The translations under genes were made by a program, and so were the position numbers. A DNA stretch of 62,056 nucleotides, the filler included, from Stramenopiles sp. TOSAG23-6 (Eukaryota): NCBI GenBank assembly GCA_900128565.1. It is 15 parts of 15 records of this genome, joined end to end, with 100 filler letters (N's around TTAATTAATTAA, not from the genome) between each part and the next. Parts side by side here need not be neighbours in the genome. Positions count along the whole stretch, not along the records: positions 41,527 to 45,555 come from LT637288.1; 14 more parts are not named here. The stretch is one strand, 5' to 3'. Positions 8,339 to 62,056 of this stretch are shown here, one piece after another. Numbering within the stretch: position 1 is the first letter of the stretch; each line of letters begins with the position of its first letter. Below the pieces are notes generated by a model. That model was given only the letters and a program-made list of their open reading frames with translations. It was not told where the DNA came from and did no database searches.

Positions 8339-10157
8339 CAACATTAGCTATCACAACACTATTAAAAACAGGGAGTGAAAATTCTATTGATAGACTCATT
8401 AAACAAATTTCATCCTTTATGTCAGAAATTGACGATGAGCATAAAATTCGTGTCGTGGCAGCCATTGAAGAATTAGTGGTGAAGTACCCGAATAAACACA
8501 TTATATTGCTGAATTTTCTATCGAGTATATTACGCGAGGAAGGCGGTTTTCAATTTAAAAGCTCTATTGTTAGTGCTATTCTACGTGTGATGGACATCAT
8601 CCCAGAAACAAAAGAATCTGCTTTATTCCATTTGTGTGAATTTATAGAAGATTGCGAATTTCCTAGATTATCAACGCGGATTCTATATCTACTTGGGGAA
8701 AAAGCCCCATTAACCAGAGCACCAGAAAAATATGTTCGTTTCGTATTTAATCGTGTGATTCTCGAAAAGCCTCTAGTGTATGTTTTATTCATTTCGTACG
8801 AAATTTCGTACCTAACAATCATCCATTTCAAAATTTATTTCAAAATTTATTTCAAAATTTATTTTTTTGTACTTATACCTAATCCAAAATATTTTGTACC
8901 TAACAATTTTTGTTTTTGAAAAATATTTTTTTACAGGTTATTCGTGCTGCTGCAGTTTCGGCGTTAGCGAAATTTGGTTCTAAAGTAGAAAGTTTACGCC
9001 CCTCAATAGTTGTTCTCTTACGTCGTTGTCTTCATGATGAAGACAATGAAGTACGAGACCGTGCAACAGTAGCTTACAATCTTTTGGAAAGTCATTCTCA
9101 TTTAGCATCACAATTTGTTGTGAACGATTTATCGCAGAGCTCTGAAGCACTCGGTCGCTCTCTCCAAATATATTACGCTCATCCAGTACCCGGTCCTATT
9201 ACTTTAGAATCTCTCCCTGTTGTGGAGGAACGCGTAGTAGCACCTGTGATGACGAAAAAAGATATGGAAGAGTCACATCTTTTAGGTACTTCATCTTCTA
9301 TGAAAACCACATCATCCTCTGCGAAGGTTGCAAGTGAAGAGCTAAAGAAACTGTATGAAATTCCTCAATTTGCAAAGGTTGGTACATTGGTTAAATCTTG
9401 TAAAGCTGTTGCTTTATCTGCTGCTGAAAGTGAGTTCGTCGTTCATTGCACAAAATATATATTTGAAAATCATGTGGTATTTGCCTTTGGGATCACAAAC
9501 ACTCTTGATGATGCCTTATTGGAAAATGCCGAGGTCAGAATGGAAGCGGATGATGACGAAGTCTTTCCAAATGGAGGTGAACCAAAAGAATGTATTCCTG
9601 CAGCTCGGTGTTTATTTAACACGAAATCTATTTCTTATGTCATGATGCAACGTAATCCAGATGCATTTGACAGTGTTAATTTTGCTTGTGACCTTCATTT
9701 TACTAGTCGAGATATTGACCCTGATTCTGGCGAACTTGATGAAGATGAAGAAGGTGAAAAAGATGAATTTCCTCTTGATAGTTTGAATGTAACACTTGCG
9801 GATTTTATAGTTGAAACCTATGTACCTAAAGGAGAATTCCGAAAAACATGGGAGGAAATGGGAAAAGCTGGAGAAGTTCTTGAAAAATTTGCGCTAGATT
9901 TTAAGACACTTCAAATTGGTGTGAGTAAAATTATCGATCAGCTTGGGATGGGAGTTTGTGAAAGGTCGGATAATGTTCCTGCGGATGCTCGGTCACATAA
10001 TATTTTTCTAGCGGGGACACTATCAGGAACTGCTCAAGTACAGCTTTTGTTACGAGGTAACCTTAGTGTTGGTTCTTCTGGTTGTGTGCTAAAAGTGATG
10101 GTTAGATCTGAGGATCCTACTATCAGCCAGTTGGTGATTGACTCAATTAGTTCATAA
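8339..10157 (+). CDS. COPG: Coatomer subunit gamma (5'-partial); intron 8778-8941
   Basis: [70 protein letters not shown]; appendage domain at the C-terminus. Confidence 0.95.
8778..8941 (+). mobile_element. Introner-like element / probable GT-AT intron (gamma-COP)
   Basis: GT|GTATGTTTT...GTACGAAATTTCGTACCTAAC...ACAGGTTAT|T CGT gives ILEKPLVRAAAV. A GT-AG alternative (8776-8936) adds one residue. Confidence 0.75.
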
Positions 10158-30011: not shown

Positions 30012-30462
30012 CAGTCAGTCAAAATTACAGTACTATATAAATGTCTCCGACGAGCAGTTATTCTAGCGGTCAGAAGTTTCTGAAAATCCCAAAAAATCCC
30101 AAAAAATCCAAAATGCTTTACTTTACGTATGAAATTTTGGTACAGATTCAATATTGGACAGGAGATTTTTTTGCTTTTTCGAATTCTATAGGAAAAAAAA
30201 AAGAGTACCGGGTAACAATGCTGAAAAAAAAAATCTTTTTTTTTCTCATCAAGCGCAAAGATCAAAAATGATGACCACACCACACCAACAAACAATATAT
30301 GTACATAAACACATCCATAATAATACAAGTATAAGATTACTGAATTTCAAAGACGTATTCTACTATAGTATTGATTTCAATTGTGTTATATATCAGTATT
30401 GTCAACTATTCGCGCAAAATTGTATTTTGTAAACAGTCTAGTATACATTTAAATATATTGTA

Positions 30463-32282
30463 ATGTCGCGTCATCGTGACGTTCGTAATCGAACATATAG
30501 TTACGAACCAGATGAGGCCATTGATCATTTTCACTTGGCAGATGATTTTCAAGAACCGTATTCACCAACCACTGGGGCATTTATATACAATAGAAATAAC
30601 AATCCTAGCGCATTCTCATTGAATGAAGAATTGCGTGTTGATCCAACTGATGGGAATGCATACACAAAAAAAGAGTTCATTACTGAATACGGAGGAACTT
30701 TTGAGTGGGATGATGCGCTGCCTTTAGTTCGTGAAAGCACAACCACCACATCTTCTCACCATGGGAGAAATCAACAAAAAGATGAAGATTTGTGGGAAGC
30801 AATGCAAAAACAACAATTGTTAAAAAAGAAGAATAAGAAAAAAGCAAAAAATAAAACTAAAAAGGGAACTGAATTCTCAAAAGTCTCAAACGTCTCAAAA
30901 ATCTCAAAAGTTTCGCCGCCTCCAATTCCTTCCACTACTTCATTACAGCAACAACATGCAATATGTACAAAGCATTCAAAATCAAAAAACAAATCAGTGG
31001 TACATAATACGATACAATCCAATGGTGTGCAATATTCACTGTATCGAAAAAACCCTAACCCTAATGAAACTTTTTTGGAATTGGAACAAAAATCGAATCC
31101 TACTCGTCAACACAGTCAACATCATAACCCTAAGCCTAATACTATTTCAAACCCTAACCCTACACTACATAGTCATATGATTGATCAATCTTCAATACAA
31201 AATGAAATTTCAATTGAACAAGTTCAAAAAGAAATACAAAAGTCTAAAGATAGAAAAAAGAAATGGTTAAAAATGCAACAAAACAATTCTCAACATTCTC
31301 AACATTCTCAACAACAAAATCAAAATATTGTCAATCACACAGATCTCGCTAACCCTAATCCTAACCCTACATCATCCACCCTACAAAACCTACAAAACCT
31401 ACAAAACCCTAACCACCAGAATGAAAAACATGAAACAAAAAACACGAATTCGAAAACACTTTCAACGCAACAACAAAACCCTAACCCTAACCAACAAAAC
31501 AAAAATAATAGTCAAAACATAAAATCGAAACATTTCAAAGAATCATCTAAAAAAAAAATGGAAAAACAAAATATTATTCATAGAAAAATTAAAAGAAAAG
31601 GAAAAATGCGTTTAGTGATGGTTGTTGTTGGTCATGTTGACGCCGGTAAGAGTACAGTCATGTACGTTGTTTTTTTATACGAAATTTTGTACCTAAACAA
31701 AATTTTTTTTTTTTTACTACGAAATTTTCATAGAAAACAAAAAAACAAAAAAGTTTTTTTTTTTTTTTCAAATTTTTTTTAATTTTTTTTTTTCATACGA
31801 AATGTCGTACCTAACAATGTTTTTTTTTTGTGATTTCGTGTTTTTTTACAACACATGGGTCATCTTTTATATGATTTAAAGCAAGTAAGTCAAAAACAAA
31901 TGCGAAGATTTGAAAAAGATTCGAAATTTTTAGGAAAATCATCATTTGCGTTTGCTTGGGTCCTGGATGAAAATATTGCTGAGCGTGAACGTGGGGTAAC
32001 AATGTATGTTTTATTTTTTTTTTTTTCTGGTAAAAAAAAAATCGATTTTTTTTTTTTGGTTTTCGTACGAAATTCCGTACCTAACAAAAAAAAAAAAAAA
32101 AAAAAAAAAAATTGCACAATACATTGATGTTGGATTTAATCATTTTGAAACACGAAATCGACACGTGACTGTACTGGATGCTCCCGGGCATCGAGATTTT
32201 ATACCAAATATGATACGTGGTGCAGCACAAGCAGATGTGGCTGTTTTAGTTGTGTCAGCATCCAAAGGAGAATTTGAAGCAG
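30463..32282 (+). CDS. HBS1: HBS1-like translational GTPase (EF1A superfamily), N-terminal part; introns 31662-31856 and 32004-32124
   Basis: MSRHRDVR N-terminus; [75 protein letters not shown]. Confidence 0.9.
31662..31856 (+). mobile_element. Introner-like element / GT-AT intron immediately after the HBS1 P-loop
   Basis: GTC AT|GTACGTT...TACAACACAT|G GGT CAT gives GKSTVMGHLLY. Confidence 0.92.
32004..32124 (+). mobile_element. Introner-like element / GT-AT intron in the HBS1 switch-I motif
   Basis: ACA AT|GTATGTTTT...CACAATACAT|T GAT GTT gives ERERGVTIDVG. Confidence 0.92.
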
Positions 32283-32416: not shown

Positions 32417-33071
32417 CTTGGTCGATTACTTCCTTTAGTGCGAAACGAATCTGTATTACAAGCACCACTACCTACTGATGCAAACTTAGACTTATTTTCT
32501 GCAGGATCACCACTACGAGCAGCAACTGCGTCGCGAGGAACTGCGGTGGTTGTTAATAACCTTTCTGCTATTCTTCGCCGTGCATGTATGTTTTATTTTT
32601 TTTTTTTACCGAAAAATATTTCAAAATTTTTTTTTTGGTATGAAATTTTCATAGAAAACAATTTTTTTTTTTTGAAACTAAAAAACTAAAAAAACTAAAA
32701 AACTAAAAAAAAAAAAAAACTAAAAAGAAAAAAATTTTGAAATATTTTTCCAAAATACATGTTTTCTAACACTTAGTGAACGCCGATCCCCAGAAGCAAT
32801 GGCGCATATGATACCTGAATGGTTCACGTATAATAATATATGTATGTTTGATTTTTTTTCAATTAGGGTTAGGGTTAGGGTTAGGGTCTACATATTTTTT
32901 TTTTTTTGTACCTAACAATTTTTTTTAGATTTTGTTTTTTTTGAAATATTTTTCCAAAATACATACAAAAGTGACACAGAAAGTAAGAATTGTTTAGCAT
33001 CGGAAATTGTGATACTTTTTCGAAGATTGAGTCGCTCTCCGTTGTGGCGTCAACCTTTAGCTGTATTATTT
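32417..33071 (+). CDS. Internal exons of an unidentified protein that is not HBS1; introners 32586-32760, 32842-32964 and from 33072
   Basis: LGRLLPLVRNESVLQ...LRRAC|FLTLSERRSPEAMAHMIPEWF...; frame continues across repeat removals. Confidence 0.5.
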
Positions 33072-39345: not shown

Positions 39346-41344
39346 ATGAAGAAACTTTTTGTGATAGATACTAAATATCATACAAAAGGAAAGGTAATTT
39401 TTGCTTGGCAAGGTGATGGCCATTTTCTTGCAACGTCAGGTGAAAATGGAATTGTTCACATCTTTGACCGACAAGGAAACGATGTGGATGAAATTGCTAT
39501 CCATGGAGATGTATGCACATCCTTAGAATGGGATAAAGATGGTCAATATTTAGCTGTTTTACAAAAAGGTAATGGCGTTGTTACCTTATGGAATCAATCC
39601 ACTCGAAGTATNCAAAAAATCGATACTAATTTAAAAAATCCGACATTTCTTTCTTGGTCCATAAACGGTCCTCAACTTGCTATTGGTACTGAAAAAGGGA
39701 ATTTATTATTATACAGAAAGGATACAAGACGGATGATACCTATATTAGGTAAACATACAAGACAAATATCATGTGGTTGTTGGTTATCGAATAATACATT
39801 AGCGTTAGGATCAGATGATGGGTCAGTTACGCTAAGCACATCGAATGGTGATACTTTGGATCATTTTGATGTTGGTGGACGTCCAGTGGCAATTCAATGT
39901 GTTGTACAAGACTCATCCTTAGGGTTGACACAAGACATTCAATCTACACAAAAAATAGATGAAAAAAAAGATTCTTTTGGTTCAGATTCAAGTGAAAATA
40001 ATACAGGAGTTGCAGTTACAATTGATTATAACAAAATAATGTTATATAAAGATTTAAGCCTAGGTAAGAAAGAGAAAAAAAGAAAACCAAAAGAAATTCA
40101 ATTTCAAAAACGTTATGGAGCAATTGTTAATTCTGTTTGGTATGCACAAAATTCTTTAATTGTCGCCTTTTCTAAAGGTACATTTTATTTATTTATTTTT
40201 TTTTGTATGAATTTGAATTTTTTTTTCATACGGAATTTCGTACCTAACAATTTTTTTTTTTTTTTTTTTTTTTTATTTTTTTTTTTTTTTTTTGTATGAG
40301 ATTTTTTTTTGTTTTTTTTCATACGAAATTTCGTACCTAATAAATTTTCAAAATTTTTAAAATTTTTTTCACAATATAGGATACACAATCATTGTCTCAA
40401 CAGAGGAGAATGACATTGGAACAGAACTGTTTTCATGGAAATTATTTGATGACCATTTGTATAACATTTGTTATAATACAAAATTAAAACGATTTGCTGC
40501 TCTTGGTGATGATTCATTGAAAATAATTGAATATAATGAAAATGAAAATATTTGGAAAAAAATATCAAATAATTCTATCCAATTAAAAAGTAAAAAATTT
40601 GGTACAGCAACTTCAATGTGTTTTTTTTTTTTTTTTCAATTTTTTTTTTTTTGTATGAATTTTTTTTTTTTTTTGAAAATTTTGTACCTAACAGATTTTC
40701 AAAATTTTTTTTGAAATATTTTTCCAAAATACATCGACTGGACAAATGATGGTCAGATTATTACACTTAGTACAAACACAGCCAATATTACATCATATGT
40801 TGCTACAATGTCAACTATAAATAGTACATTTGGTACAAAAATTTGTTATTGTTCATCATTACAAGAATTGGCTATTATTGACGTACGTTTTTAGTATGAA
40901 TTTTATTTTATTTTATTTTTTTTGTTTTTTGTTTTTTTTGTACGAAATTTTGTACCTAACAAAAAAAAAAAAAATATTTTTCACAAAATATGTACGACAA
41001 AACAATNNNNNNNNNNNNNNNNNNNNNNNNNNNNNNNNNNNNNNNNNNNNNNNNNNNNNNNNNNNNNNNNNNNNNNNNNNNNNNNNNNNNNNNNNNNNNN
41101 NNNNNNNNNNNNNNNNNNNNNNAATTTCGAAATTTTAAATTTTTTTTTTTTTTTTTTTTTTTGTACAACATTTTGTACCTAAACAACAAAAAAAAAATGA
41201 AATATTTGTTTACAATATTTGGGGTAGGAATGAATTCACATTTATGGTTTTATTATTGTACTAAAGGGGAATATAAGTTAGTGAGAGAGAGAGACTATCT
41301 TGGTACAGTTGAACATGTTTGTATTAGTACACAGTATGCAGCAG
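39346..41344 (+). CDS. WDR19: WD repeat protein 19 / IFT144 (3'-partial); introns 40178-40379 (GT-AG), 40618-40734 and 40883-40991 (GT-AT)
   Basis: MKKLF, FAWQGDGHFLA, LEWDKDG, QLAIGTEKGNLLLY....R.IPILGKHTRQI.CGCW, DWTNDGQ, VGMNSHLWFY, RDYLGTV. Confidence 0.9.
40178..40379 (+). mobile_element. Introner-like element forming a canonical GT-AG intron (AG duplication), duplicated core
   Basis: AAA G|GTACATTTT...CACAATATAG|GA TAC. Confidence 0.8.
40618..40734 (+). mobile_element. Introner-like element / GT-AT intron (WDR19)
   Basis: TCA AT|GTGTTTT...CCAAAATACAT|C GAC TGG gives SIDWTNDGQ. Confidence 0.85.
40883..40991 (+). mobile_element. Introner-like element / GT-AT intron (WDR19; 5' flank AC)
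   Basis: GAC|GTACGTTTT...CACAAAATAT|GTA CGA. Confidence 0.75.
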
Positions 41345-41426: not shown

Positions 41427-41612
41427 NNNNNNNNNNNNNNNNNNNNNNNNNNNNNNNNNNNNNNNNNNNNTTAATTAATTAANNNNNNNNNNNNNNNNNN
41501 NNNNNNNNNNNNNNNNNNNNNNNNNNTGTGAAAAAATATTTTAGAAAAAAAAATGTTAGGTACGGAATTTCGTACGAAAAAAAACTATTTGAAATTTATA
41601 ATGGAAACGTAC

Positions 41613-42982
41613 ATTACTTCAAAAAGTGAAAGTTGTGCAGTTACTGCAGTAGATTCCTCAATTCTATCGCGAATATCTTGAGATTTTTGTGATTCAATAG
41701 CTCGTATGAAATCAGAGGAACAATCTCTTTCAAGTAATACAGTTTCATGTATTCTGAAAAAATATTTTTTTTATAAAATTTGTTAGGTACACAATTTCGT
41801 ACGAAAAAAAATATAAATTTAAAATTAAGAAAAAAACTAAAACATACAGCTACCTCCGCCAGCTTTTGGTGATGGCGTCGTTGAAGTAAAAGACAGTTGT
41901 TGAAATGTTAGGGATTTTTTAGGAGTTTCCAAAGAAACCATATTCGAATCTGAATGTATTGTGAAAAAATATTAAAAAAAAAAAAAACTCAAATTTGTTA
42001 GGTACGAAATTTCGTATGAAAAAAAAATTAAATTAGAAATTCATATAAAACGTACATGTAATCGTCTTGACCTACGGCGACTATTTTTGTTATTCTTATT
42101 CACCCGTTTCGACATTGGAGTTGCAATTTCGATAAATTTTTCAACTTCATGTATTCAGGAAGAATATATCAAATTTGAAATTTGTTAGAGATGTTGCAAA
42201 ATTTGGATTATGTAAAACGTTAGGTACAAAATTTCGTATGAAACCAAAATTGATAATAAAAACGTACGTGAGAATTATCAATCAGAAAAATGTATGCGAC
42301 AATTGATATTAGAAGTACAATGTAAGCACTACTAAAATACAAATGAGTTCCAGTGCTATGAGCACCTTCTGTAGCAGCTTTCGTGATAACTTTTAAAATA
42401 CCCATGATAATCCCAGCAAAGCCAATTCCGCTGGATACTGCAGAAGTGTGCGCACCTGTACAACACCCTGCAATAGCAAACATGGAGCCTTGCACAACAG
42501 CACCACCAAATCCAACGAGAACGCCCATAACCATAATTTCCCAGAACTCTGATACACCATCTTTAGTTATTAAATATTGAGTAATAATACAAACACCAAC
42601 AAGCATAATTAGACCACCTACAACGTTAACTTTATGCGAAAACGGAAAGCCAAAAGCAGCACTAAGACCGAGAACAAAAATGTTCGGAGTAATTGAACCT
42701 GCCAGAATCCAAGGGATTGACCAGTCACCAAAAAGATGTTTGAAGGTATCAAAGCATTGAATATTATGTATGATATATATGAATTATAATAAATATGAAT
42801 AAATATAGCAATAATTTGGATGATGTATACGATGGTCCAAGAATTGTTACATACAGAAACGCATTGTATGGAGTCAATATCCCAATACCAAGAATAAAGA
42901 ACGCAAGTATTACAAAACGCTCTTTCTTTTTTGGAACGCTAGAAGTGTGCACTGGTATAGATAATGCTGGTGTTGATACCAT
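41613..42982 (-). CDS. Equilibrative nucleoside transporter (ENT/SLC29), 3'-partial; introns 42761-42854, 42149-42267, 41954-42055, 41747-41847
   Basis: FFILGIGILTPYNAFL|QCFDTF, GFGGAVVQGSMFAIAG, HTSAVSSGIGFAGI, LKVITKA. Confidence 0.85.
41747..42267 (-). mobile_element. Three introner-like GT-AT introns (41747-41847, 41954-42055, 42149-42267) in the ENT central loop
   Basis: GCT|GTATG..AATACAT|GAA; CAT|GTACG..AATACAT|TCA; CAC|GTACG..AATACAT|GAA. Confidence 0.8.
42761..42854 (-). other. GT-AT intron lacking the introner core
   Basis: TTT CT|GTATGTAAC...TACATAATAT|T CAA TGC restores PYNAFLQCFDTF, colinear with the ENT PWNAFITAVDYF pattern; no AG near the 3' end. Confidence 0.75.
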
Positions 42983-43359
42983 TTTAAAATGAATTACTGT
43001 AAAACCTTAGTAAAAAATGTTTTAGGTAATATCTCGCACCACTATACAGATACTGTAGAACACGACGTAGTATTTACAAACAGAACGGAATATAGTCAGT
43101 CCAAGTGTGTCAAATTCAATTTTTTGATATTTCGTGTAATTACCACTGAGCAAAGTGCAATTGCGTATTTCGTGTTACGACACCGACGCGATTGCCAATT
43201 GGTTTTTTTCTGAAATATTATTAAATTTTTCTAAAAGCAAATGTCGGACATCATCTATCTCCGAGAACCATAACGGTAAAGATACAAAGATACCATAACT
43301 TTTGTATCAGTATTTACATTATATATTAACAAGCCAACTCTTCGCAACATTAGAACAAT

Positions 43360-44782
43360 ATGCCAATACCTCTAAGTGATAAAGGCATGAAGTCACCGCG
43401 CCTGTCTTTGACTGCGAGTCAATCAAGTGTGCCGGTAAACAACGATTCTCAGCACGTCAGGGGTAAAAAAATTCTCATCGTTGACGACAATCATCAAGAA
43501 AGAGGAGAAACGCAAGCAAGGTTATTAAAAGCAGGCGTAAAAAGTGCCGTCCCTGTTGACTGCGCAGAAGCAGCTGCTTTATTTGCTGAGAAACGCCCCC
43601 TGCATACCATGTTTGATGTAGTCCTACTTGATTGGCGCTGTCCCAACGTTCAAGGAATTCCGTTTCCACGCCTATTATCGGATACATACAACGGTACTGA
43701 ATTACGTGTATTTATTACTGAACCCAATGCTCGGCCTCACCAGTCAAGAAATGGATTACATGTACTTTCCAAGCCCATCGTGATGCATGAACTCGAACAC
43801 TTGTGTTCTTTACCACCGCACACTTTATGGGGTCCTGTGCCTGCCGAACCTGTTCATCCACTCTACAGCCAAACTGCTCCAGGTTCACCTTCGCATTCTT
43901 TTAACATTGACTCATGGAGACAGACTAATCATGATATTGTACAGGACCAAAGAAGACAGTTGGCACCAGGTGCAGTTTATGCCGATGATGAGGAAACTGA
44001 ATATGAGAACCCTAAAAAATACCACCATGCAACTCCACACGATGAACCTCACGGGATGACCTTTGGAATGAACCATGACGAGCTCTCAAAGACAGAACAA
44101 AACATGATGCTTTTTGCCGCTTTTGCCTTTTTCATTGCTGCACTTGCATGTTTTATCAAGTATACTACGGAAGTTAAGAAAGACAACCCAAAGCATTTGG
44201 ATCTTTATGTTGCTACTACTGGAGTTTCAATGATGGCGTTCTGTGCATATCTTGCCAAATCAATTGGTCAAGGATATATCACTGTAAATGGTGTGACTAT
44301 CTGTCATGTTCGTTACATTGATTGGTTCTGTACCACACCACTCATGATTTACGATTTAACTGCTCTCGCTGGGGCTTCAACGGCTACATCAATTTTTACA
44401 ATCCTTGTTGATTTATGTATGATTGTTTTTGGAATTGTTGGAATGAGCTCGGCTGAATGGCGTCACAAATGTATCTGGTATTTTGTGGCGTGCGTTTTTT
44501 ATATCGTTCTCATTTACCTACTGTTGTCACCAATCCAATCCGCAGTGGACAGGGAAAAAACCGAAAGCAACACAAGATGTTTACGGCACATTGGTAACTA
44601 TGACAATTGTTTCATGGACAGCATATCCTTTGGTTACCTTGAATGGACCTAACGGTGTTTACGTTAATTCTAAGGACGTGGTTGGGTGTTACAGCCACCA
44701 CACAGAAGCTATTTTGATTGTATTCTTGGATCTTGTTTCAAAAATTGGTTTTGAGGCAATTCTCATATTTTCCGATTATTAA
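43360..44782 (+). CDS. Receiver (REC) domain - microbial (type-1) rhodopsin fusion, DTD motif; 1-nt frameshift at ~44555-44560
   Basis: ILIVDD...DVVLLDWRCP...VFIT...LSKP; helix C RYIDWFCTTPLMIYD; helix F SWTAYPLV; helix G LDLVSKIGF in the +1 frame. Confidence 0.85.
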
Positions 44783-44982
44783 ATGGCATATTTATTTCTG
44801 AATAAGCATCTTTTACGTTACGCGTAATCGATTAATTGTATAATAAAACTGTATTATAAAAACAAAAATATATTTAAGCAATTGGATCACAAGTAGATTT
44901 TTATTTTCTAATCAAAATGTACTATACGAGCATTGCCATACGAACATAAATCTTTATATAGTAAACAAACTACAAAAATTGT

Positions 44983-45555
44983 TCAAGCAAATGGATCAAA
45001 TTCAATAGAATTGTTTCCATTGTTGAGATTCATGTTTTTGTTATTTTTGTTGTTCATTTCATGTGCTGCAAATGGATCAAATCCATTTGGACCTGAAAAA
45101 GGATCGAATGCCGGGACTGGATTCGTTTTATTGTTGTTTAGGTTCATATTTTTGTTATTTTGGAAACCGCCCATATTATTGTTATTATATCCAACTCTAT
45201 TGGCAGGTGGTGGTCTTGGAGGCATTTGACCATATCCACGATTAAACTGAGGCGATTGACCCATAGAATTTCTACCTTGCATCATAGGAGCATTTAAATT
45301 ACCTTGGTTTTGCATTGCAAGGAATGGATTACTCCCAACTCTCTGACGTCCCTGTGGAGGTGCTTGGGCTACTGATCCAAATGCATCAGACACAGAAAGA
45401 TTATTTACAGGCGCGTGAGCTTGTTGCGGTTGCATTACCGAATTTCCCCCAAAAGGATCAAATTGATTACCAACACCTCCACTGCCACCGCCTGCAGATT
45501 GTGCGAATAATGCATCAAGATCCAATTCACCTTTAGGTCCAGTACTCGACGTAGA
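44983..45555 (-). CDS. C-terminus of an endocytic-adaptor-like protein with DPF/NPF motifs (5'-partial)
   Basis: FDPFG, SNPFL, FDPFS, FDPFA x2 in a disordered tail. Confidence 0.55.
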   Translation of the reverse strand, partial: STSSTGPKGELDLDALFAQSAGGGSGGVGNQFDPFGGNSVMQPQQAHAPVNNLSVSDAFGSVAQAPPQGRQRVGSNPFLAMQNQGNLNAPMMQGRNSMGQSPQFNRGYGQMPPRPPPANRVGYNNNNMGGFQNNKNMNLNNNKTNPVPAFDPFSGPNGFDPFAAHEMNNKNNKNMNLNNGNNSIEFDPFA

Positions 45556-49630: not shown

Positions 49631-49837
49631 ATGTATTTTGGAAAAATATTTCAAAAAAAAAAACTAAAATTTGTTAGGTACAAANNNNNNNNNNNNNNNN
49701 NNNNNNNNNNNNNNNNNNNNNNNNNNNNTTAATTAATTAANNNNNNNNNNNNNNNNNNNNNNNNNNNNNNNNNNNNNNNNNNNNGTACAAAATTTTTATA
49801 AAAAAAAAATTCGAATTTGAAAAAAAATAAAACATAC

Positions 49838-51435
49838 ATGGTTTTACACAGCACTGGTAACGTATGTTGTGAAACTAACCCAGATACAGACACAAATTTT
49901 GATCGTGCAAAGGAAGTTGAAGTAAAATCAGATGTTGCTTTACCATTTGGACCACTTAAATTAGTTCTTTCTCCACCATTACCACCTACTGGGGTAGTCA
50001 ATTGTTGTATTCGTTGTGCTAATTGAGTAAACATTGACCGAACACGGGGATATTCCGTTGATATTGCCGTTTTCAAAAAATTTGAGGATTCAAAACTTGT
50101 TTTTAATATCTGTGTTAATAATTTACATACATTCACCCATATTAAAGAGAGCATTGAAAGTACAGTTACAGTTGCGGACGACTTACTTTGATCAGTTGCT
50201 GATGTCGAAGAAATCTCATTTTGACTACATGAAGAAGCACCGATTTGATTTTGCGCGTGACGTAAAACAAAATTAATGAAAAAGTCCTGTGTGCTTGGAT
50301 CCCTCTTCTTGCACAAAATTTTAAAAATCGACCACGTCATTACAATGTGATTAAAGATACAATCACAGACTTTTTTTAGTCGTTTCCAAAGTAAAAGTCG
50401 CCAAGCAGCATCTTCACCTAGAGAAGGATTTAATTTCCCGCGTACAGCTCCGGGCAATGAATTACGATGTTCCTTTCTGCCTTTTGATTTATTTCTATTT
50501 TCTTTTGCAATTTTTTCAACATCGAGAAGATCTTTTATAAAAACAGATATCTTTTGCGTTAAATGAGCCATAGCAATATCGACAGCATCTGGAAGCATAC
50601 CTAAACAAAAGTATATTTGTAAAGAGGCACCAGTGGAAGCATGATTTTTTTTATCCAAACCATTGAGTAATACACTTTCTGCACCATGACGAACTCGAGC
50701 ACTGGCTTCCAATATCCAGACACGTTCTTTTTCTACAAAGTTAATTCCGGAAAGAGCAGGGAAATGTAGAGCCTTCTCCACATCACGGAGATATTGAGCA
50801 GCTTTGTACAACTCTCGAGGTTTATATACTACGATACGCTTTTTAGATAATGACTTTCCATTATTTTTTACCGGCCCACTGACAAGTTTCATCTGTAACT
50901 TTAATTTACCTACAGCAAATATAAGTCTGAGTATGCGACGAAGAATTGCGGATACGTTTTGCATCCGACGAAGCTGTACGGTTCTTAACTTCATTAACTT
51001 AAATGGTTCTAACACGTCAGTATTTATTTTTTGCATTGATGATTGTAACTCAGATACACCCTCAACAACTCCTGTGAAGTCGTTTTGTACTTTCTTTACT
51101 CGAGTCACACGATCCAACAAAGCTGGTTGATTTACAGACACTAAAGTTTTAATGTCTTTATTTATAGACACAAGATATGAATCCAAAGATGAAATACATA
51201 TTTCCAAACTATTCGCATGATCTAATTCCGCCTTGAACGATGTGTTAGATCGATGAGAGCTACTGCGACGTGAGCGTGGCGATAGAGGTTGACCCGAGCT
51301 GCCACTCCGAGATCTTTGTTGTGCGTCCTGTGCTAAAATATCTGCAGCAAAAGTATTAGCATCAAATTGAGGTCTGAGAAATACAGCAAGGTCTTCATCA
51401 GTCTCAATTGAAGAAGCAATTTCAAGAGTATCCAT
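49838..51435 (-). CDS. COG5: Conserved oligomeric Golgi complex subunit 5 (3'-partial, ends in an introner); identical copies at 53962-55559 and 58086-59683
   Basis: FLRPQFDANTFA, LSGINFVEKE, SLQIYFCLG, LCKKRDP.TQ, EYPRVRSMF. Confidence 0.8.
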
Positions 51436-51736
51436 TGTACCTTAGTTTGTTTTGATACAAGTCATTACACTGATCTGTCGTGGAAACTACTACTATTTTT
51501 TATCATTCTGTTATATAAGAGGAAGGAGTCAAGACTCAAGAGTCAAAAAAGAGCGTCAAAAATTGGCATTCATTTTTTGATTTTATTTTTCATTTCGAGT
51601 CCGAGTCAGTTCGACTGTTAGGCCTACGTACTACGTAGGGATCTATGATCTCTCAGTACCTTGCTTGCTCTGAGTCCCATAGCTATTAAGGCTAATTTAT
51701 AGTTTAAGTATAATACTACTGTGACGAATCAAAAAC

Positions 51737-52534
51737 ATGAGGAAACTTGTACAAATTATAGTGTGGTTCACTTGCTTTCTGAGTAATAGCTTTGCTTTTG
51801 GTAAAGGAATATATTCTAGCAAAAGCGAAGTTCGGTGGTTTACTGACAACGGAGATACAAGAGACGGCGTTAACATTACCTTTCACTTGGAGAAACAAGA
51901 TAAACCATACACAATTTACGATGCGATAACAGATTCCCTTGAAATAATTCTCGAGATTCCAGAACAATTTCGTAATTATCCCACTAAACTTTTGCGTTGT
52001 TGGAAACCAGCAGCTACAAATTTCTTTTTGAAACAAAATAGATTGATCAAAAACCTCAAAGATGTAAAAAGGATATCTCTCAAATTGTCTGTATCTCTGC
52101 CAAAAGACGGAAGGATAGCGACTATCTTTCCACATGACTCCGATCAATTTACTATTTCTCTATCTATGGACGAAATTCATTTTTTGTTGTGGTATCCTGG
52201 GTCTGAAAGGGTTAACAAACACTCTTGGTGTGCAACGAAAGTAAGAGGTACATTTAAAGGGGGGAGAAGAAGTACTTATCAATATTTTCCGGTTGTAGAG
52301 CTACATAGTGTGTCCCCAATCATCGAAAGCCAAAATTATTTGCGTCAACATAAACGTGCAAAATATACTGAGGAAGAGGCATCAAAGGATGTAGTAAAAT
52401 ATACTGAGGAAGAGGCATCAAAGGATTTAGTGTTGAAACGTGTAAAATATACTGAGGAAGAGGCATCAAAGGATTTAGTCTTTCTCTCTTCTGGAAAAGT
52501 TGAAGTTGACCCACCAGACAGTGTTTGGGTTTGA
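51737..52534 (+). CDS. Hypothetical secreted protein with three KYTEEEASKD repeats (copies at 55861-56658 and 59985-60782)
   Basis: N-terminal hydrophobic signal-like segment ending SFA; tandem repeats near the C-terminus. Confidence 0.55.
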   Translation: MRKLVQIIVWFTCFLSNSFAFGKGIYSSKSEVRWFTDNGDTRDGVNITFHLEKQDKPYTIYDAITDSLEIILEIPEQFRNYPTKLLRCWKPAATNFFLKQNRLIKNLKDVKRISLKLSVSLPKDGRIATIFPHDSDQFTISLSMDEIHFLLWYPGSERVNKHSWCATKVRGTFKGGRRSTYQYFPVVELHSVSPIIESQNYLRQHKRAKYTEEEASKDVVKYTEEEASKDLVLKRVKYTEEEASKDLVFLSSGKVEVDPPDSVWV

Positions 52535-52750
52535 TTAAAATATTCAATCTCAAATGAAAAAAGTTTCATTTATTATTTTACTTATAATACGAATAGATAT
52601 AGAATGATCTTATTTATACACCAGTACTATGATAATATTGCTTTTATGAATACTATTCACTTATAAAATAGTAATTTTTGACACCATTGGAAGAAGGCTA
52701 TAACAAACGAATCTGCTTTTACAAATTTTTACGTCGGAACGTGATGCTTC

Positions 52751-53808
52751 CTATCCATTGTTGTAGTTTGGCTTTTCGCCTTTGTTCGTTTCTCCCTCGC
52801 TCGTGTCTCCCTCTGTTTCTTCTTTATTTGATTCTTCCTTTTCAGATTTTGCTTCATTTTTTGATTCTTTTGATGCTTTCTTCGTTTTTTTCTTGGCAAT
52901 CCCATTTCCCCCCGGACCCGGAGCACCTAGAGATTGTATTTCTCCCATTAATTTCGTTGTCAATTCTATTTCTCTCTTAGTTTGAGTCTTTGCTTTTTTT
53001 ACCAAGTCTTCATACCCTTTCAAAGTCTCTTTTTCCTCTGTGTCTAATGCTTTATTTTCTTTCTCTTCCGACTTTGTGTCCTTCTTTGGCGTTGGTACTA
53101 TACTATTTGGTACCATACCAGTCCATCTATTCAGGTCTTTTGTTCTATGAAGGATAAATCGCTTTAAATCATAAACTCGGTGAATCAAGCTCTTGATCTG
53201 TTGTAGTTTTGAATCAAATTGGAAGTTTCCAAAATTATAATCATGGGTAATTATTGGAAAATTGGCAAGTACATTATTTACTTCATTCCTAGCGGTAGTG
53301 ATGTCTCTATGTATACGTGCAGTTTCCAATTGTTTTTGCCTTTGGTATAAAATTGATTTTTGTTGCTCTAGCATAAATTCTTGATTCGTCAATGATGCAA
53401 GTTCTGCCTCTATCCCAGGTTGTTGTATCGCACCGGAAGAACCAAATGCATCATTCATTTCATGTTGTTGTTGCATTGCACCCATAAAATCAACTGCATC
53501 ATTCATCCCAGGTACATTTTGATGGAATTCTCCAATACCAGTACCTGCGCCTTTTTGAGAGGATACAATGTTGTTCATTGGTAAAATTTGAGTATCAGCC
53601 ATATTTTGTTGCATCTGTGAAAGCATTTCATTTTCAGCCAAAATATTACTCGATGTATCAGATGTTATTGGGCCACCCGGTAACCCAAGTTCTGCTCGAC
53701 GACGCTTCATCCATGCATCATCCGTTTGTTCTAAATTGCTTATGTCTTGTGAAACTTGTACATCTTTATTCATACTCTCTGACTGTGGATATAATTCTGG
53801 TACTTGTA
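52751..53808 (-). CDS. Hypothetical protein, probably 5'-partial (copies at 56875-57932 and 60999-62056)
   Basis: ORF of at least 340 aa, Q/M-rich with an acidic/basic tail. Confidence 0.5.
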
Positions 53809-56800
53809 NNNNNNNNNNNNNNNNNNNNNNNNNNNNNNNNNNNNNNNNNNNNTTAATTAATTAANNNNNNNNNNNNNNNNNNNNNNNNNNNNNNNNNNNN
53901 NNNNNNNNGTACAAAATTTTTATAAAAAAAAAATTCGAATTTGAAAAAAAATAAAACATACATGGTTTTACACAGCACTGGTAACGTATGTTGTGAAACT
54001 AACCCAGATACAGACACAAATTTTGATCGTGCAAAGGAAGTTGAAGTAAAATCAGATGTTGCTTTACCATTTGGACCACTTAAATTAGTTCTTTCTCCAC
54101 CATTACCACCTACTGGGGTAGTCAATTGTTGTATTCGTTGTGCTAATTGAGTAAACATTGACCGAACACGGGGATATTCCGTTGATATTGCCGTTTTCAA
54201 AAAATTTGAGGATTCAAAACTTGTTTTTAATATCTGTGTTAATAATTTACATACATTCACCCATATTAAAGAGAGCATTGAAAGTACAGTTACAGTTGCG
54301 GACGACTTACTTTGATCAGTTGCTGATGTCGAAGAAATCTCATTTTGACTACATGAAGAAGCACCGATTTGATTTTGCGCGTGACGTAAAACAAAATTAA
54401 TGAAAAAGTCCTGTGTGCTTGGATCCCTCTTCTTGCACAAAATTTTAAAAATCGACCACGTCATTACAATGTGATTAAAGATACAATCACAGACTTTTTT
54501 TAGTCGTTTCCAAAGTAAAAGTCGCCAAGCAGCATCTTCACCTAGAGAAGGATTTAATTTCCCGCGTACAGCTCCGGGCAATGAATTACGATGTTCCTTT
54601 CTGCCTTTTGATTTATTTCTATTTTCTTTTGCAATTTTTTCAACATCGAGAAGATCTTTTATAAAAACAGATATCTTTTGCGTTAAATGAGCCATAGCAA
54701 TATCGACAGCATCTGGAAGCATACCTAAACAAAAGTATATTTGTAAAGAGGCACCAGTGGAAGCATGATTTTTTTTATCCAAACCATTGAGTAATACACT
54801 TTCTGCACCATGACGAACTCGAGCACTGGCTTCCAATATCCAGACACGTTCTTTTTCTACAAAGTTAATTCCGGAAAGAGCAGGGAAATGTAGAGCCTTC
54901 TCCACATCACGGAGATATTGAGCAGCTTTGTACAACTCTCGAGGTTTATATACTACGATACGCTTTTTAGATAATGACTTTCCATTATTTTTTACCGGCC
55001 CACTGACAAGTTTCATCTGTAACTTTAATTTACCTACAGCAAATATAAGTCTGAGTATGCGACGAAGAATTGCGGATACGTTTTGCATCCGACGAAGCTG
55101 TACGGTTCTTAACTTCATTAACTTAAATGGTTCTAACACGTCAGTATTTATTTTTTGCATTGATGATTGTAACTCAGATACACCCTCAACAACTCCTGTG
55201 AAGTCGTTTTGTACTTTCTTTACTCGAGTCACACGATCCAACAAAGCTGGTTGATTTACAGACACTAAAGTTTTAATGTCTTTATTTATAGACACAAGAT
55301 ATGAATCCAAAGATGAAATACATATTTCCAAACTATTCGCATGATCTAATTCCGCCTTGAACGATGTGTTAGATCGATGAGAGCTACTGCGACGTGAGCG
55401 TGGCGATAGAGGTTGACCCGAGCTGCCACTCCGAGATCTTTGTTGTGCGTCCTGTGCTAAAATATCTGCAGCAAAAGTATTAGCATCAAATTGAGGTCTG
55501 AGAAATACAGCAAGGTCTTCATCAGTCTCAATTGAAGAAGCAATTTCAAGAGTATCCATTGTACCTTAGTTTGTTTTGATACAAGTCATTACACTGATCT
55601 GTCGTGGAAACTACTACTATTTTTTATCATTCTGTTATATAAGAGGAAGGAGTCAAGACTCAAGAGTCAAAAAAGAGCGTCAAAAATTGGCATTCATTTT
55701 TTGATTTTATTTTTCATTTCGAGTCCGAGTCAGTTCGACTGTTAGGCCTACGTACTACGTAGGGATCTATGATCTCTCAGTACCTTGCTTGCTCTGAGTC
55801 CCATAGCTATTAAGGCTAATTTATAGTTTAAGTATAATACTACTGTGACGAATCAAAAACATGAGGAAACTTGTACAAATTATAGTGTGGTTCACTTGCT
55901 TTCTGAGTAATAGCTTTGCTTTTGGTAAAGGAATATATTCTAGCAAAAGCGAAGTTCGGTGGTTTACTGACAACGGAGATACAAGAGACGGCGTTAACAT
56001 TACCTTTCACTTGGAGAAACAAGATAAACCATACACAATTTACGATGCGATAACAGATTCCCTTGAAATAATTCTCGAGATTCCAGAACAATTTCGTAAT
56101 TATCCCACTAAACTTTTGCGTTGTTGGAAACCAGCAGCTACAAATTTCTTTTTGAAACAAAATAGATTGATCAAAAACCTCAAAGATGTAAAAAGGATAT
56201 CTCTCAAATTGTCTGTATCTCTGCCAAAAGACGGAAGGATAGCGACTATCTTTCCACATGACTCCGATCAATTTACTATTTCTCTATCTATGGACGAAAT
56301 TCATTTTTTGTTGTGGTATCCTGGGTCTGAAAGGGTTAACAAACACTCTTGGTGTGCAACGAAAGTAAGAGGTACATTTAAAGGGGGGAGAAGAAGTACT
56401 TATCAATATTTTCCGGTTGTAGAGCTACATAGTGTGTCCCCAATCATCGAAAGCCAAAATTATTTGCGTCAACATAAACGTGCAAAATATACTGAGGAAG
56501 AGGCATCAAAGGATGTAGTAAAATATACTGAGGAAGAGGCATCAAAGGATTTAGTGTTGAAACGTGTAAAATATACTGAGGAAGAGGCATCAAAGGATTT
56601 AGTCTTTCTCTCTTCTGGAAAAGTTGAAGTTGACCCACCAGACAGTGTTTGGGTTTGATTAAAATATTCAATCTCAAATGAAAAAAGTTTCATTTATTAT
56701 TTTACTTATAATACGAATAGATATAGAATGATCTTATTTATACACCAGTACTATGATAATATTGCTTTTATGAATACTATTCACTTATAAAATAGTAATT

Positions 56801-59800
56801 TTTGACACCATTGGAAGAAGGCTATAACAAACGAATCTGCTTTTACAAATTTTTACGTCGGAACGTGATGCTTCCTATCCATTGTTGTAGTTTGGCTTTT
56901 CGCCTTTGTTCGTTTCTCCCTCGCTCGTGTCTCCCTCTGTTTCTTCTTTATTTGATTCTTCCTTTTCAGATTTTGCTTCATTTTTTGATTCTTTTGATGC
57001 TTTCTTCGTTTTTTTCTTGGCAATCCCATTTCCCCCCGGACCCGGAGCACCTAGAGATTGTATTTCTCCCATTAATTTCGTTGTCAATTCTATTTCTCTC
57101 TTAGTTTGAGTCTTTGCTTTTTTTACCAAGTCTTCATACCCTTTCAAAGTCTCTTTTTCCTCTGTGTCTAATGCTTTATTTTCTTTCTCTTCCGACTTTG
57201 TGTCCTTCTTTGGCGTTGGTACTATACTATTTGGTACCATACCAGTCCATCTATTCAGGTCTTTTGTTCTATGAAGGATAAATCGCTTTAAATCATAAAC
57301 TCGGTGAATCAAGCTCTTGATCTGTTGTAGTTTTGAATCAAATTGGAAGTTTCCAAAATTATAATCATGGGTAATTATTGGAAAATTGGCAAGTACATTA
57401 TTTACTTCATTCCTAGCGGTAGTGATGTCTCTATGTATACGTGCAGTTTCCAATTGTTTTTGCCTTTGGTATAAAATTGATTTTTGTTGCTCTAGCATAA
57501 ATTCTTGATTCGTCAATGATGCAAGTTCTGCCTCTATCCCAGGTTGTTGTATCGCACCGGAAGAACCAAATGCATCATTCATTTCATGTTGTTGTTGCAT
57601 TGCACCCATAAAATCAACTGCATCATTCATCCCAGGTACATTTTGATGGAATTCTCCAATACCAGTACCTGCGCCTTTTTGAGAGGATACAATGTTGTTC
57701 ATTGGTAAAATTTGAGTATCAGCCATATTTTGTTGCATCTGTGAAAGCATTTCATTTTCAGCCAAAATATTACTCGATGTATCAGATGTTATTGGGCCAC
57801 CCGGTAACCCAAGTTCTGCTCGACGACGCTTCATCCATGCATCATCCGTTTGTTCTAAATTGCTTATGTCTTGTGAAACTTGTACATCTTTATTCATACT
57901 CTCTGACTGTGGATATAATTCTGGTACTTGTANNNNNNNNNNNNNNNNNNNNNNNNNNNNNNNNNNNNNNNNNNNNTTAATTAATTAANNNNNNNNNNNN
58001 NNNNNNNNNNNNNNNNNNNNNNNNNNNNNNNNGTACAAAATTTTTATAAAAAAAAAATTCGAATTTGAAAAAAAATAAAACATACATGGTTTTACACAGC
58101 ACTGGTAACGTATGTTGTGAAACTAACCCAGATACAGACACAAATTTTGATCGTGCAAAGGAAGTTGAAGTAAAATCAGATGTTGCTTTACCATTTGGAC
58201 CACTTAAATTAGTTCTTTCTCCACCATTACCACCTACTGGGGTAGTCAATTGTTGTATTCGTTGTGCTAATTGAGTAAACATTGACCGAACACGGGGATA
58301 TTCCGTTGATATTGCCGTTTTCAAAAAATTTGAGGATTCAAAACTTGTTTTTAATATCTGTGTTAATAATTTACATACATTCACCCATATTAAAGAGAGC
58401 ATTGAAAGTACAGTTACAGTTGCGGACGACTTACTTTGATCAGTTGCTGATGTCGAAGAAATCTCATTTTGACTACATGAAGAAGCACCGATTTGATTTT
58501 GCGCGTGACGTAAAACAAAATTAATGAAAAAGTCCTGTGTGCTTGGATCCCTCTTCTTGCACAAAATTTTAAAAATCGACCACGTCATTACAATGTGATT
58601 AAAGATACAATCACAGACTTTTTTTAGTCGTTTCCAAAGTAAAAGTCGCCAAGCAGCATCTTCACCTAGAGAAGGATTTAATTTCCCGCGTACAGCTCCG
58701 GGCAATGAATTACGATGTTCCTTTCTGCCTTTTGATTTATTTCTATTTTCTTTTGCAATTTTTTCAACATCGAGAAGATCTTTTATAAAAACAGATATCT
58801 TTTGCGTTAAATGAGCCATAGCAATATCGACAGCATCTGGAAGCATACCTAAACAAAAGTATATTTGTAAAGAGGCACCAGTGGAAGCATGATTTTTTTT
58901 ATCCAAACCATTGAGTAATACACTTTCTGCACCATGACGAACTCGAGCACTGGCTTCCAATATCCAGACACGTTCTTTTTCTACAAAGTTAATTCCGGAA
59001 AGAGCAGGGAAATGTAGAGCCTTCTCCACATCACGGAGATATTGAGCAGCTTTGTACAACTCTCGAGGTTTATATACTACGATACGCTTTTTAGATAATG
59101 ACTTTCCATTATTTTTTACCGGCCCACTGACAAGTTTCATCTGTAACTTTAATTTACCTACAGCAAATATAAGTCTGAGTATGCGACGAAGAATTGCGGA
59201 TACGTTTTGCATCCGACGAAGCTGTACGGTTCTTAACTTCATTAACTTAAATGGTTCTAACACGTCAGTATTTATTTTTTGCATTGATGATTGTAACTCA
59301 GATACACCCTCAACAACTCCTGTGAAGTCGTTTTGTACTTTCTTTACTCGAGTCACACGATCCAACAAAGCTGGTTGATTTACAGACACTAAAGTTTTAA
59401 TGTCTTTATTTATAGACACAAGATATGAATCCAAAGATGAAATACATATTTCCAAACTATTCGCATGATCTAATTCCGCCTTGAACGATGTGTTAGATCG
59501 ATGAGAGCTACTGCGACGTGAGCGTGGCGATAGAGGTTGACCCGAGCTGCCACTCCGAGATCTTTGTTGTGCGTCCTGTGCTAAAATATCTGCAGCAAAA
59601 GTATTAGCATCAAATTGAGGTCTGAGAAATACAGCAAGGTCTTCATCAGTCTCAATTGAAGAAGCAATTTCAAGAGTATCCATTGTACCTTAGTTTGTTT
59701 TGATACAAGTCATTACACTGATCTGTCGTGGAAACTACTACTATTTTTTATCATTCTGTTATATAAGAGGAAGGAGTCAAGACTCAAGAGTCAAAAAAGA

Positions 59801-62056
59801 GCGTCAAAAATTGGCATTCATTTTTTGATTTTATTTTTCATTTCGAGTCCGAGTCAGTTCGACTGTTAGGCCTACGTACTACGTAGGGATCTATGATCTC
59901 TCAGTACCTTGCTTGCTCTGAGTCCCATAGCTATTAAGGCTAATTTATAGTTTAAGTATAATACTACTGTGACGAATCAAAAACATGAGGAAACTTGTAC
60001 AAATTATAGTGTGGTTCACTTGCTTTCTGAGTAATAGCTTTGCTTTTGGTAAAGGAATATATTCTAGCAAAAGCGAAGTTCGGTGGTTTACTGACAACGG
60101 AGATACAAGAGACGGCGTTAACATTACCTTTCACTTGGAGAAACAAGATAAACCATACACAATTTACGATGCGATAACAGATTCCCTTGAAATAATTCTC
60201 GAGATTCCAGAACAATTTCGTAATTATCCCACTAAACTTTTGCGTTGTTGGAAACCAGCAGCTACAAATTTCTTTTTGAAACAAAATAGATTGATCAAAA
60301 ACCTCAAAGATGTAAAAAGGATATCTCTCAAATTGTCTGTATCTCTGCCAAAAGACGGAAGGATAGCGACTATCTTTCCACATGACTCCGATCAATTTAC
60401 TATTTCTCTATCTATGGACGAAATTCATTTTTTGTTGTGGTATCCTGGGTCTGAAAGGGTTAACAAACACTCTTGGTGTGCAACGAAAGTAAGAGGTACA
60501 TTTAAAGGGGGGAGAAGAAGTACTTATCAATATTTTCCGGTTGTAGAGCTACATAGTGTGTCCCCAATCATCGAAAGCCAAAATTATTTGCGTCAACATA
60601 AACGTGCAAAATATACTGAGGAAGAGGCATCAAAGGATGTAGTAAAATATACTGAGGAAGAGGCATCAAAGGATTTAGTGTTGAAACGTGTAAAATATAC
60701 TGAGGAAGAGGCATCAAAGGATTTAGTCTTTCTCTCTTCTGGAAAAGTTGAAGTTGACCCACCAGACAGTGTTTGGGTTTGATTAAAATATTCAATCTCA
60801 AATGAAAAAAGTTTCATTTATTATTTTACTTATAATACGAATAGATATAGAATGATCTTATTTATACACCAGTACTATGATAATATTGCTTTTATGAATA
60901 CTATTCACTTATAAAATAGTAATTTTTGACACCATTGGAAGAAGGCTATAACAAACGAATCTGCTTTTACAAATTTTTACGTCGGAACGTGATGCTTCCT
61001 ATCCATTGTTGTAGTTTGGCTTTTCGCCTTTGTTCGTTTCTCCCTCGCTCGTGTCTCCCTCTGTTTCTTCTTTATTTGATTCTTCCTTTTCAGATTTTGC
61101 TTCATTTTTTGATTCTTTTGATGCTTTCTTCGTTTTTTTCTTGGCAATCCCATTTCCCCCCGGACCCGGAGCACCTAGAGATTGTATTTCTCCCATTAAT
61201 TTCGTTGTCAATTCTATTTCTCTCTTAGTTTGAGTCTTTGCTTTTTTTACCAAGTCTTCATACCCTTTCAAAGTCTCTTTTTCCTCTGTGTCTAATGCTT
61301 TATTTTCTTTCTCTTCCGACTTTGTGTCCTTCTTTGGCGTTGGTACTATACTATTTGGTACCATACCAGTCCATCTATTCAGGTCTTTTGTTCTATGAAG
61401 GATAAATCGCTTTAAATCATAAACTCGGTGAATCAAGCTCTTGATCTGTTGTAGTTTTGAATCAAATTGGAAGTTTCCAAAATTATAATCATGGGTAATT
61501 ATTGGAAAATTGGCAAGTACATTATTTACTTCATTCCTAGCGGTAGTGATGTCTCTATGTATACGTGCAGTTTCCAATTGTTTTTGCCTTTGGTATAAAA
61601 TTGATTTTTGTTGCTCTAGCATAAATTCTTGATTCGTCAATGATGCAAGTTCTGCCTCTATCCCAGGTTGTTGTATCGCACCGGAAGAACCAAATGCATC
61701 ATTCATTTCATGTTGTTGTTGCATTGCACCCATAAAATCAACTGCATCATTCATCCCAGGTACATTTTGATGGAATTCTCCAATACCAGTACCTGCGCCT
61801 TTTTGAGAGGATACAATGTTGTTCATTGGTAAAATTTGAGTATCAGCCATATTTTGTTGCATCTGTGAAAGCATTTCATTTTCAGCCAAAATATTACTCG
61901 ATGTATCAGATGTTATTGGGCCACCCGGTAACCCAAGTTCTGCTCGACGACGCTTCATCCATGCATCATCCGTTTGTTCTAAATTGCTTATGTCTTGTGA
62001 AACTTGTACATCTTTATTCATACTCTCTGACTGTGGATATAATTCTGGTACTTGTA

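Follow-up and report, generated by a model that had tools for sequence, protein, structure and literature searches.

An AT-ending intron without AG in an ENT gene of Stramenopiles sp. TOSAG23-6 and its probable removal by a major spliceosome tolerating T at the last intron base

In the non-conventional introns of euglenids, the cut is set by pairing of the intron ends, and U12-type introns, both AT-AC and GT-AG, tolerate unusual terminal dinucleotides. Non-canonical U2-type introns are found in Fritillaria borealis and F. pellucida, with a 3' AT as their commonest end (34% and 44%, respectively, as given in the available part of PMC13326754). In yeast, deletion of prp18 activates HAU sites: CAU and UAU are the best non-G ends, an upstream poly(U) helps, and a pair between U at -1 and G at +1 has been proposed (available part of PMC10711555). 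Compensatory changes of U1 are described in Entamoeba and Mastigamoeba (accessible text of 10.1101/2022.06.08.495308). The phrase "GT-AT introns" was not found in a literature search reaching few subscription papers, and a search of the same reach, at the level of listings, returned no report of AT-ending introns in a stramenopile.

The window analyzed here is a stretch of 62,056 nt from Stramenopiles sp. TOSAG23-6, a marine protist not yet in culture, and is composed of contigs of about 4 kb joined by N linkers; the assembly it comes from (G000) amounts to 21 Mb, in 6,236 contigs. A tally of subunits (proteasome 8 of 14, Sm/LSm 9 of 15, CCT 5 of 8) suggests that the assembly is about 60% complete. 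In a Prp8 tree, built by FastTree from the longer sequences of a selection of 50 among 120 homologues, the organism forms one clade together with oomycetes and Tribonema (support 0.994), with P0026 as its sister. Duplicate contigs are common in the assembly; within the window, three consecutive contigs (49785-53808, 53909-57932 and 58033-62056) carry the same ORFs at a fixed spacing.

The ENT gene lies on the minus strand, with its ATG at 42982. According to the homologue profile, exon 1 (42855-42982, 128 nt) ends in phase 2 within TM1; exon 2 (42268-42760) corresponds to the Pfam domain Nucleoside_tran and shares 42-45% identity with P0001 and P0002. Exons 3 (42056-42148), 4 (41848-41953, a variable loop) and 5 (41613-41748) are separated by copies of a mobile-intron element. 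Intron 2 (42149-42267, 119 nt) and intron 3 (41954-42055) are both GT...AT, and intron 5 (41527-41612) is cut by the contig end, the remainder of the gene lying outside the window. In intron 4 (41749-41847), also an element copy, the usual AT end, 2 nt further, creates a stop, and an AC end keeps the frame open; this is either a GT-AC end or a one-base assembly error.

Intron 1 (42854-42761, minus strand, 94 nt) is present in a single copy in the assembly (contig C2799). It starts with a GT in a yeast-type donor (42849-42854; T at +4, G at +5, T at +6), which pairs with the organism's own U1 from exon -1 to intron +6, with one G-U pair. It ends with the triplet TAT (42761-42763), a YAT replacing YAG, as judged from the sequence and the homologue profile. 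The earlier note had reported no AG near the 3' end; in fact there is none anywhere in the intron, the first one being found 61 nt inside the next exon. Of the features of a major (U2-type) intron, a GT donor complementary to U1 and to U6, whose box is canonical, is present, and the terminal AG is not. Several AT dinucleotides are found near the end, and a strong T tract is absent. Neither a strict nor a loose match to the branch-point motif was found in the intron, the strict one being also absent from 17 of the 22 old, non-element AG introns described below; the A at 42780 (within 42779-42783), 19 nt from the end and picked by eye, may be a weak branch point.

All open-frame cuts around this intron, 1,569 in number, were compared with a profile of 151 ENT proteins. 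The GT...AT cut at 42854/42761 scored best, with 147.6 bits, versus 111.3 bits for the best GT-AG cut. The span between P and F of the TM1 motif is 12 residues long in 120 out of 122 aligned homologues, so that exactly 94 nt must be removed. The claim that this intron must end in AT is thus confirmed at the level of DNA.

A decayed element could keep traces sufficient for an element-specific route of excision, and therefore ENT intron 1 does not by itself support a conclusion about the host. Gene families were surveyed in the assembly and their introns tabulated as element or non-element. The fraction of non-AG ends among non-element introns, a measure proposed in the earlier note, is 2/24: 22 introns end in AG, as read by eye from conserved motifs, and two end in AT, namely intron 1 of Rab7 and the intron of a Rab8-like gene. 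With the background rate of non-AG ends taken as 0.5%, the chance of such a result is about 0.007 (hand calculation). ENT intron 1 and the FAH introns, which did not come from the family survey, were excluded from this count, as were three kinase introns that lack the core and have element-like donors (one ends in AT, the others in AG), two decayed copies in PSMA1, introns 2-3 of Rab7 and one long HSP60 intron (probably AG), and three unclear cases; kinase junctions falling in variable loops were left unused.

Rab7 intron 1, in contig C370, is 164 nt long and ends in CAT. Its AT cut shares the top score among 4,215 (252.8 bits) with a cut that is shifted by one base and lacks a GT donor. With GT/GC-AG ends, the highest score is 237.1 bits, for a cut that deletes P-loop residues, and all other AG cuts harm the P-loop as well. 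An intron is found at this position in 15 of 80 metagenome Rab7 loci, always GT-AG; 57 loci are intronless there, and the other 8 are partly read, an AG acceptor being seen at that point in 2. The position is therefore shared, as for an ancestral intron. In the Rab8-like intron, which is 389 nt long and lies in contig C2105, the AT cut ties for the best of 4,475, with 149.3 bits versus 129.8 for the best AG cut. Against the profile of the element, scores as high as those of the two introns were given by 67 and 35 of 100 shuffles, respectively, and the complement between their ends is only 3 bp in each. In a gene of the FAH family, all-AG models score 740 and the best model 854, two further non-AG acceptors being needed; since their exact letters are not fixed, they were counted only as non-AG. 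The same gene (L066:722-931, contig C1280) shows a micro-exon of 9-20 nt between its two core-less non-AG introns. GT/GC-AG cuts were rejected for ENT intron 1, Rab7, the Rab8-like gene and FAH, as conserved residues would be lost. An ab initio survey of A-type donors (23 candidates) was dropped, known acceptors being misplaced by it.

An A at -4 is found in 18 of the 22 old AG introns, as in the elements, so that it is mainly the last base that sets the two classes apart. The last-base change is seen both ways, as some element copies (in two kinases, a cyclophilin and UBE2H) end in AG. The relaxation of the 3' end is partial, 22 of the 24 tabulated non-element introns keeping AG. The proposal of the earlier note, that the host spliceosome itself accepts AT, thus gains support from the Rab7 and Rab8-like introns and from U1, rather than from ENT intron 1 alone.

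The genes for the U5, U2, U1 and U4 snRNAs follow one another head to tail in a stretch of 640 bases, most of them only a few bases apart (L213:9-645, contig C1146; a second identical copy is in C6122). U2, U4, U5 loop I and U6 are canonical. The 5' end of U1, compared by eye with the Rfam alignment, departs from the consensus at positions 2, 5 and 9, which oppose intron +7, intron +4 and exon -1, respectively. The only two U1 copies found are identical; a second, canonical U1 could be absent from the assembly. Element donors carry T at +7 in 67 of 67 cases and at +8 in 65 of 67, the pyrimidine at +4 being a selection criterion of the element catalogue. T is found at exon -1 in 63 of 67 elements versus 1 of 22 old introns (G 14, A 5, C 2, T 1), and old donors fit the changed U1 worse than element donors do. 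No literature report of a U1 change opposite exon -1 was found. The U1 change explains the donors, not the acceptors. Since element ends tend to repeat the exon end, a U1 favouring an exonic T may also favour insertions creating AT acceptors; AT precedes the donor in approximately 55 of 67 elements, a tally based on pattern-assigned ends.

The relation of ENT intron 1 to the element family was evaluated by several features. None of the three element motifs is present in it. Against the element profile, built on 58 copies, it scores -4.2 bits, and 60 of 100 shuffles score as high; the copies score 40-67, and for each of three control decayed copies no shuffle out of 100 did so. The flank repeat of introners is also lacking (CT before the donor, AT at the end), a mismatch shared by several clear elements. 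Family similarity and flank repeat having been tested and not found, the intron was not filed as an introner member. Its length falls within the 80-115 nt of the introners, and it has T at exon -1; both FAH introns are likewise in the element-like range of 94-99 nt, and none of the 22 old AG introns is shorter than 101 nt. In addition, 42772-42767 is complementary over 6 bp to the donor region 42855-42850, at an offset from the true end, and 42766-42772 may be a remnant of an element end; a complement of this length was reached by 120 of 2,000 shuffles, and with a cut after 42766, the loss of 89 nt would put the exons out of frame. Thus the earlier description of the intron as lacking the element core stands, and to deny it every trace of the element would be too strong. 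On a fairly even balance, ENT intron 1 is somewhat more likely to be a fully decayed element than an ordinary intron.

Other peculiarities were noted in the element copies. Some have GA or AT instead of GT as donor, in otherwise intact genes (L089, L245, L335 and L286). Compound element introns with two cores, apparently ending in AG, are found in the window at about 8830-8940 and 40180-40370 (coatomer gamma and a WDR19-like gene). Telomere-like hexamer repeats lie inside an element copy at about 32860-32885, and an HBS1-like ORF (ORFs at 30442-31782) contains Asn-Pro runs, which may derive from the telomere-like hexamer repeat.

The host's major (U2-type) spliceosome is likely, in our judgement, to remove ENT intron 1, tolerating T at the last intron base. 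Among the alternatives, the one that survives best is an excision specific to the element, where pairing of the inverted ends, or a factor of its own, sets the 3' cut; the core-less AT introns would then be decayed copies, and the host spliceosome would be unchanged for ordinary introns. The short lengths reported above agree with it, as does the complement between the two ends, which is at least 5 bp in 36 of 67 elements and in none of the 22 old introns, and reaches 6 bp in ENT intron 1 and FAH intron B. It is nonetheless unlikely: the Rab7 and Rab8-like introns have old-type lengths and little end complement, the Rab7 position being ancestral, and in ENT intron 1 the pairing register implies a cut 5 nt upstream, out of frame. 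The elements fold weakly, with a mean z of -0.97 for 30 copies out of the 58 that measure 80-115 nt, and some old AG introns reach an end pairing as high. A U2-type branch motif is present in the elements, which also fit the changed U1. ENT intron 1 itself has a minimum folding energy of -7.2 kcal/mol (z +0.67 versus 50 shuffles), and therefore does not show a stable end-joining structure of the euglenid type.

Assembled contigs of four runs (X1, X2, X3 and X6) were compared with positions 41527-45555, junction reads having been suggested in the earlier note as a check. They contain no ENT splice junction; ENT is left uncovered by X1, X2 and X6. Four joints listed in this region were rejected as cross-matches between elements. 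The same region includes, at 43360-44780 on the plus strand, a microbial rhodopsin with an N-terminal domain similar to response-regulator receivers (Pfam). One X1 contig spans the whole rhodopsin gene, and a frameshift at 44555, due to an extra base, is absent in three runs and thus probably an assembly error.

The sole X3 contig over ENT intron 1 is an unspliced read-through. Both intron ends are unchanged in it, so that the intron is not an assembly artefact. This contig bears on the reading by which AT acceptors are poor, mostly mis-spliced or retained, the ENT gene is decaying, and the acceptors read in the two Rab genes stem from consensus errors or rare alleles. Besides the unspliced contig, the errors of the assembly are in its favour, namely the extra base in the rhodopsin gene, an inversion in the Slu7 contig and the frame problem of ENT intron 4. 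Yet X3 contigs also cover intergenic DNA and element bodies, so that X3 probably holds DNA and its unspliced contig is uninformative on splicing. Moreover, the contig differs from the genome at 3 of 94 intron bases and at none of 389 ENT exon bases (Fisher p = 0.007), which makes the exons look constrained. There is only one Rab7 among 47 Ras-family matches, and it is unlikely that two unrelated introns would both suffer a G-to-T error at their last base. We regard this reading as still less probable than an element-specific excision.

A different cut at ENT intron 1 is very improbable. A register of 85 nt (42850-42766) would keep the frame and has AT on both flanks, the flank pattern of the elements; it was rejected, since it inserts 3 residues in the span fixed at 12, and its donor lacks the G at +5 found in 14 of 14 old introns. 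In addition, an X3 variant at 42848 would hit the +3 base of that donor and break it; for the donor at 42854, the same variant adds a pair with U1 at +7. Two other GT cuts of 94 nt score 145.9 and 145.4 bits and have poor donors, also without AG. All these cuts being non-AG, the conclusion on the host would stand in any case. The least probable reading of all, a transformed minor (U12-type) spliceosome or a true AT-AC register, could draw on the identical mRNA yielded by GT-AT and AT-AC wherever AT precedes the donor, and on the AC end of ENT intron 4, but AT is absent before the donor in ENT introns 1 and 2 and in Rab7 intron 1, the highest-scoring AT-AC cut of ENT intron 1 leaves 3 extra residues (139.4 versus 147.6 bits) and was rejected, the donors match the changed U1 and lack the U12 consensus, and U12 and U6atac were not found in the assembly, whose incompleteness makes this weak evidence for absence.

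Several factors that may enforce the terminal AG were examined. In Prp8, the alpha-finger is normal, and the residues corresponding to human Gln1522 and Arg1532 are kept. The RNase H domain has 13 changes over 203 conserved columns, against a median of 0 in 109 homologues; P0026, the sister, has 11, and 2 of the 109 have at least 13, so that the divergence may reflect the rate of the lineage. Four of the 13 changes (human 1866-1872) adjoin undetermined bases; the coding region of the domain (L022:5090-5120, contig C84) contains such bases together with a frameshift. Yeast alleles affecting the 3' site presumably map to Prp8 positions 1966 and 1987, for which a literature search gave no confirmation. 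Suppressors of non-YAG ends map to the RNase H domain (available part of PMC11651659), where E1960K is described as a first-step allele (accessible text of 10.1101/2020.09.05.284281).

Prp18 was not found in the approximately 60% complete assembly, by a search with prokaryotes as the only controls; the sole match to a PRP4 domain is Prp4, not Prp18. U2AF35 was not found either, among 17 matches of a CCCH family search and 11 and 8 matches of two motif patterns. Given the completeness of the assembly, either absence is weak evidence, and the U2AF35 searches are uninformative for loss. Slu7 is present; in its contig (L341, C104), the 3' end of the contig seems to recur in inverted form upstream of the gene, which would fit an amplification or assembly chimera. 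One U2AF65-like gene was found (L053, contig C433), the product of which shares at most 42% identity with its best match. In the U2AF35-binding motif, it has Phe at a position occupied by Trp in animals.

Within the P complex, the terminal G of the intron is paired with G at +1 and the A at -2 with the A of the branch point, and the pyrimidine at -3 is recognized by Gln1594 (accessible text of 10.1101/212811). In the Q1594A mutant, it is positions -3 and -2 that are relaxed (available part of PMC12707134), which is not the pattern of this genome, where A at -2, a pyrimidine at -3, G or T at -1 and the T tracts of the elements fit a lowered Prp18-dependent fidelity. In the proposed explanation, a transposon-like element with its own donor, inserting mostly after AT, would have supplied many AT-ending introns. 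The host would have adapted through U1 on the 5' side, and through a lowered fidelity of the second step on the 3' side. The A at -2 and the pyrimidine at -3 would still be read, branch A and Prp8 Gln1522 being intact, and U at -1 would pair with G at +1. With AT tolerated, the AG of ordinary introns would have been free to drift to AT, and the core of old elements free to decay.

The need for the AT cuts and the change in U1 are documented here by DNA and protein homology; from these we infer excision by the spliceosome, the order of events and the responsible factor. As for the latter, loss or weakening of Prp18 function, or a change in the Prp8 RNase H domain, is our tentative preference; a changed or lost U2AF35 is a rather unlikely cause. 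How the correct AT would be chosen among the several of ENT intron 1 is left unexplained by the proposed mechanism. A more extensive version, in which the major spliceosome of a free-living stramenopile has been remodelled in nature, is doubtful: Prp18, perhaps with U2AF35, would be lost, U1 would have co-evolved with the donor and the insertion site of the transposon, and GU-AU introns would be the main class, with G and U nearly interchangeable at the last base, ancestral introns included. If so, this genome would be a wild counterpart of the yeast prp18 mutant, and would document how a mobile element rewrote the splice-site rules of its host on both the 5' and the 3' side.

If GU-AU introns must be removed to obtain intact proteins, and AG and AT ends coexist with changes running both ways, such a genome puts to the test the candidate enforcers of the AG rule: Prp18, the RNase H domain of Prp8 and U2AF35. 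It also bears on whether bursts of introners drive changes of the spliceosome. At a practical level, standard gene prediction will break genes in this lineage, Rab7 included.

Compared with U12-type introns, those described here have no U12 donor consensus, and the AT-AC register is excluded at three of them. GU donors are joined to AU acceptors in prp18-deleted Saccharomyces as in this genome; in the mutant, however, the use of AU is a low-level error and BG sites are also activated (available part of PMC10711555), whereas here intact proteins require AT. The U1 of Mastigamoeba has the same change opposite intron +4 as found here; neither a U1 change opposite exon -1 nor non-AG acceptors are reported for Entamoeba and Mastigamoeba in the accessible text of 10.1101/2022.06.08.495308. 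In the U1 described here, position 9 pairs with the exonic T, tying U1 to the insertion site, and position 2 with the T at +7.

The elements resemble the introners of Micromonas and others in being many, short and similar, in carrying the donor, and in taking the acceptor from the target-site duplication; known introners co-opt AG (available part of PMC11282704), whereas here the end is mostly AT, and ENT intron 1 has no match to the family profile. Fritillaria is the nearest case, in the available parts of PMC13326754 and PMC11282704. In both systems transposon-derived introns copy the exon end, and the last triplet is of the YAY type; removal of the non-canonical introns by the major spliceosome, as in Fritillaria, is the route proposed here. 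In contrast, the donors of Fritillaria are also non-canonical (AG/AC, AG/AT), and here they are strong GT donors; the sequence of U1 is unchanged there and changed here, the Fritillaria type being marked also by changed m6A on U1 and U6; the U2AF subunits are duplicated and divergent there, and here one U2AF65 was found and U2AF35 was not, in an incomplete assembly. At conserved positions Fritillaria keeps GT-AG, whereas an intron at an ancestral position, in Rab7, ends in AT here. The host described here, unlike Fritillaria, is a stramenopile; it would be a second independent lineage with a 3' AT, this time with canonical donors and a changed U1.
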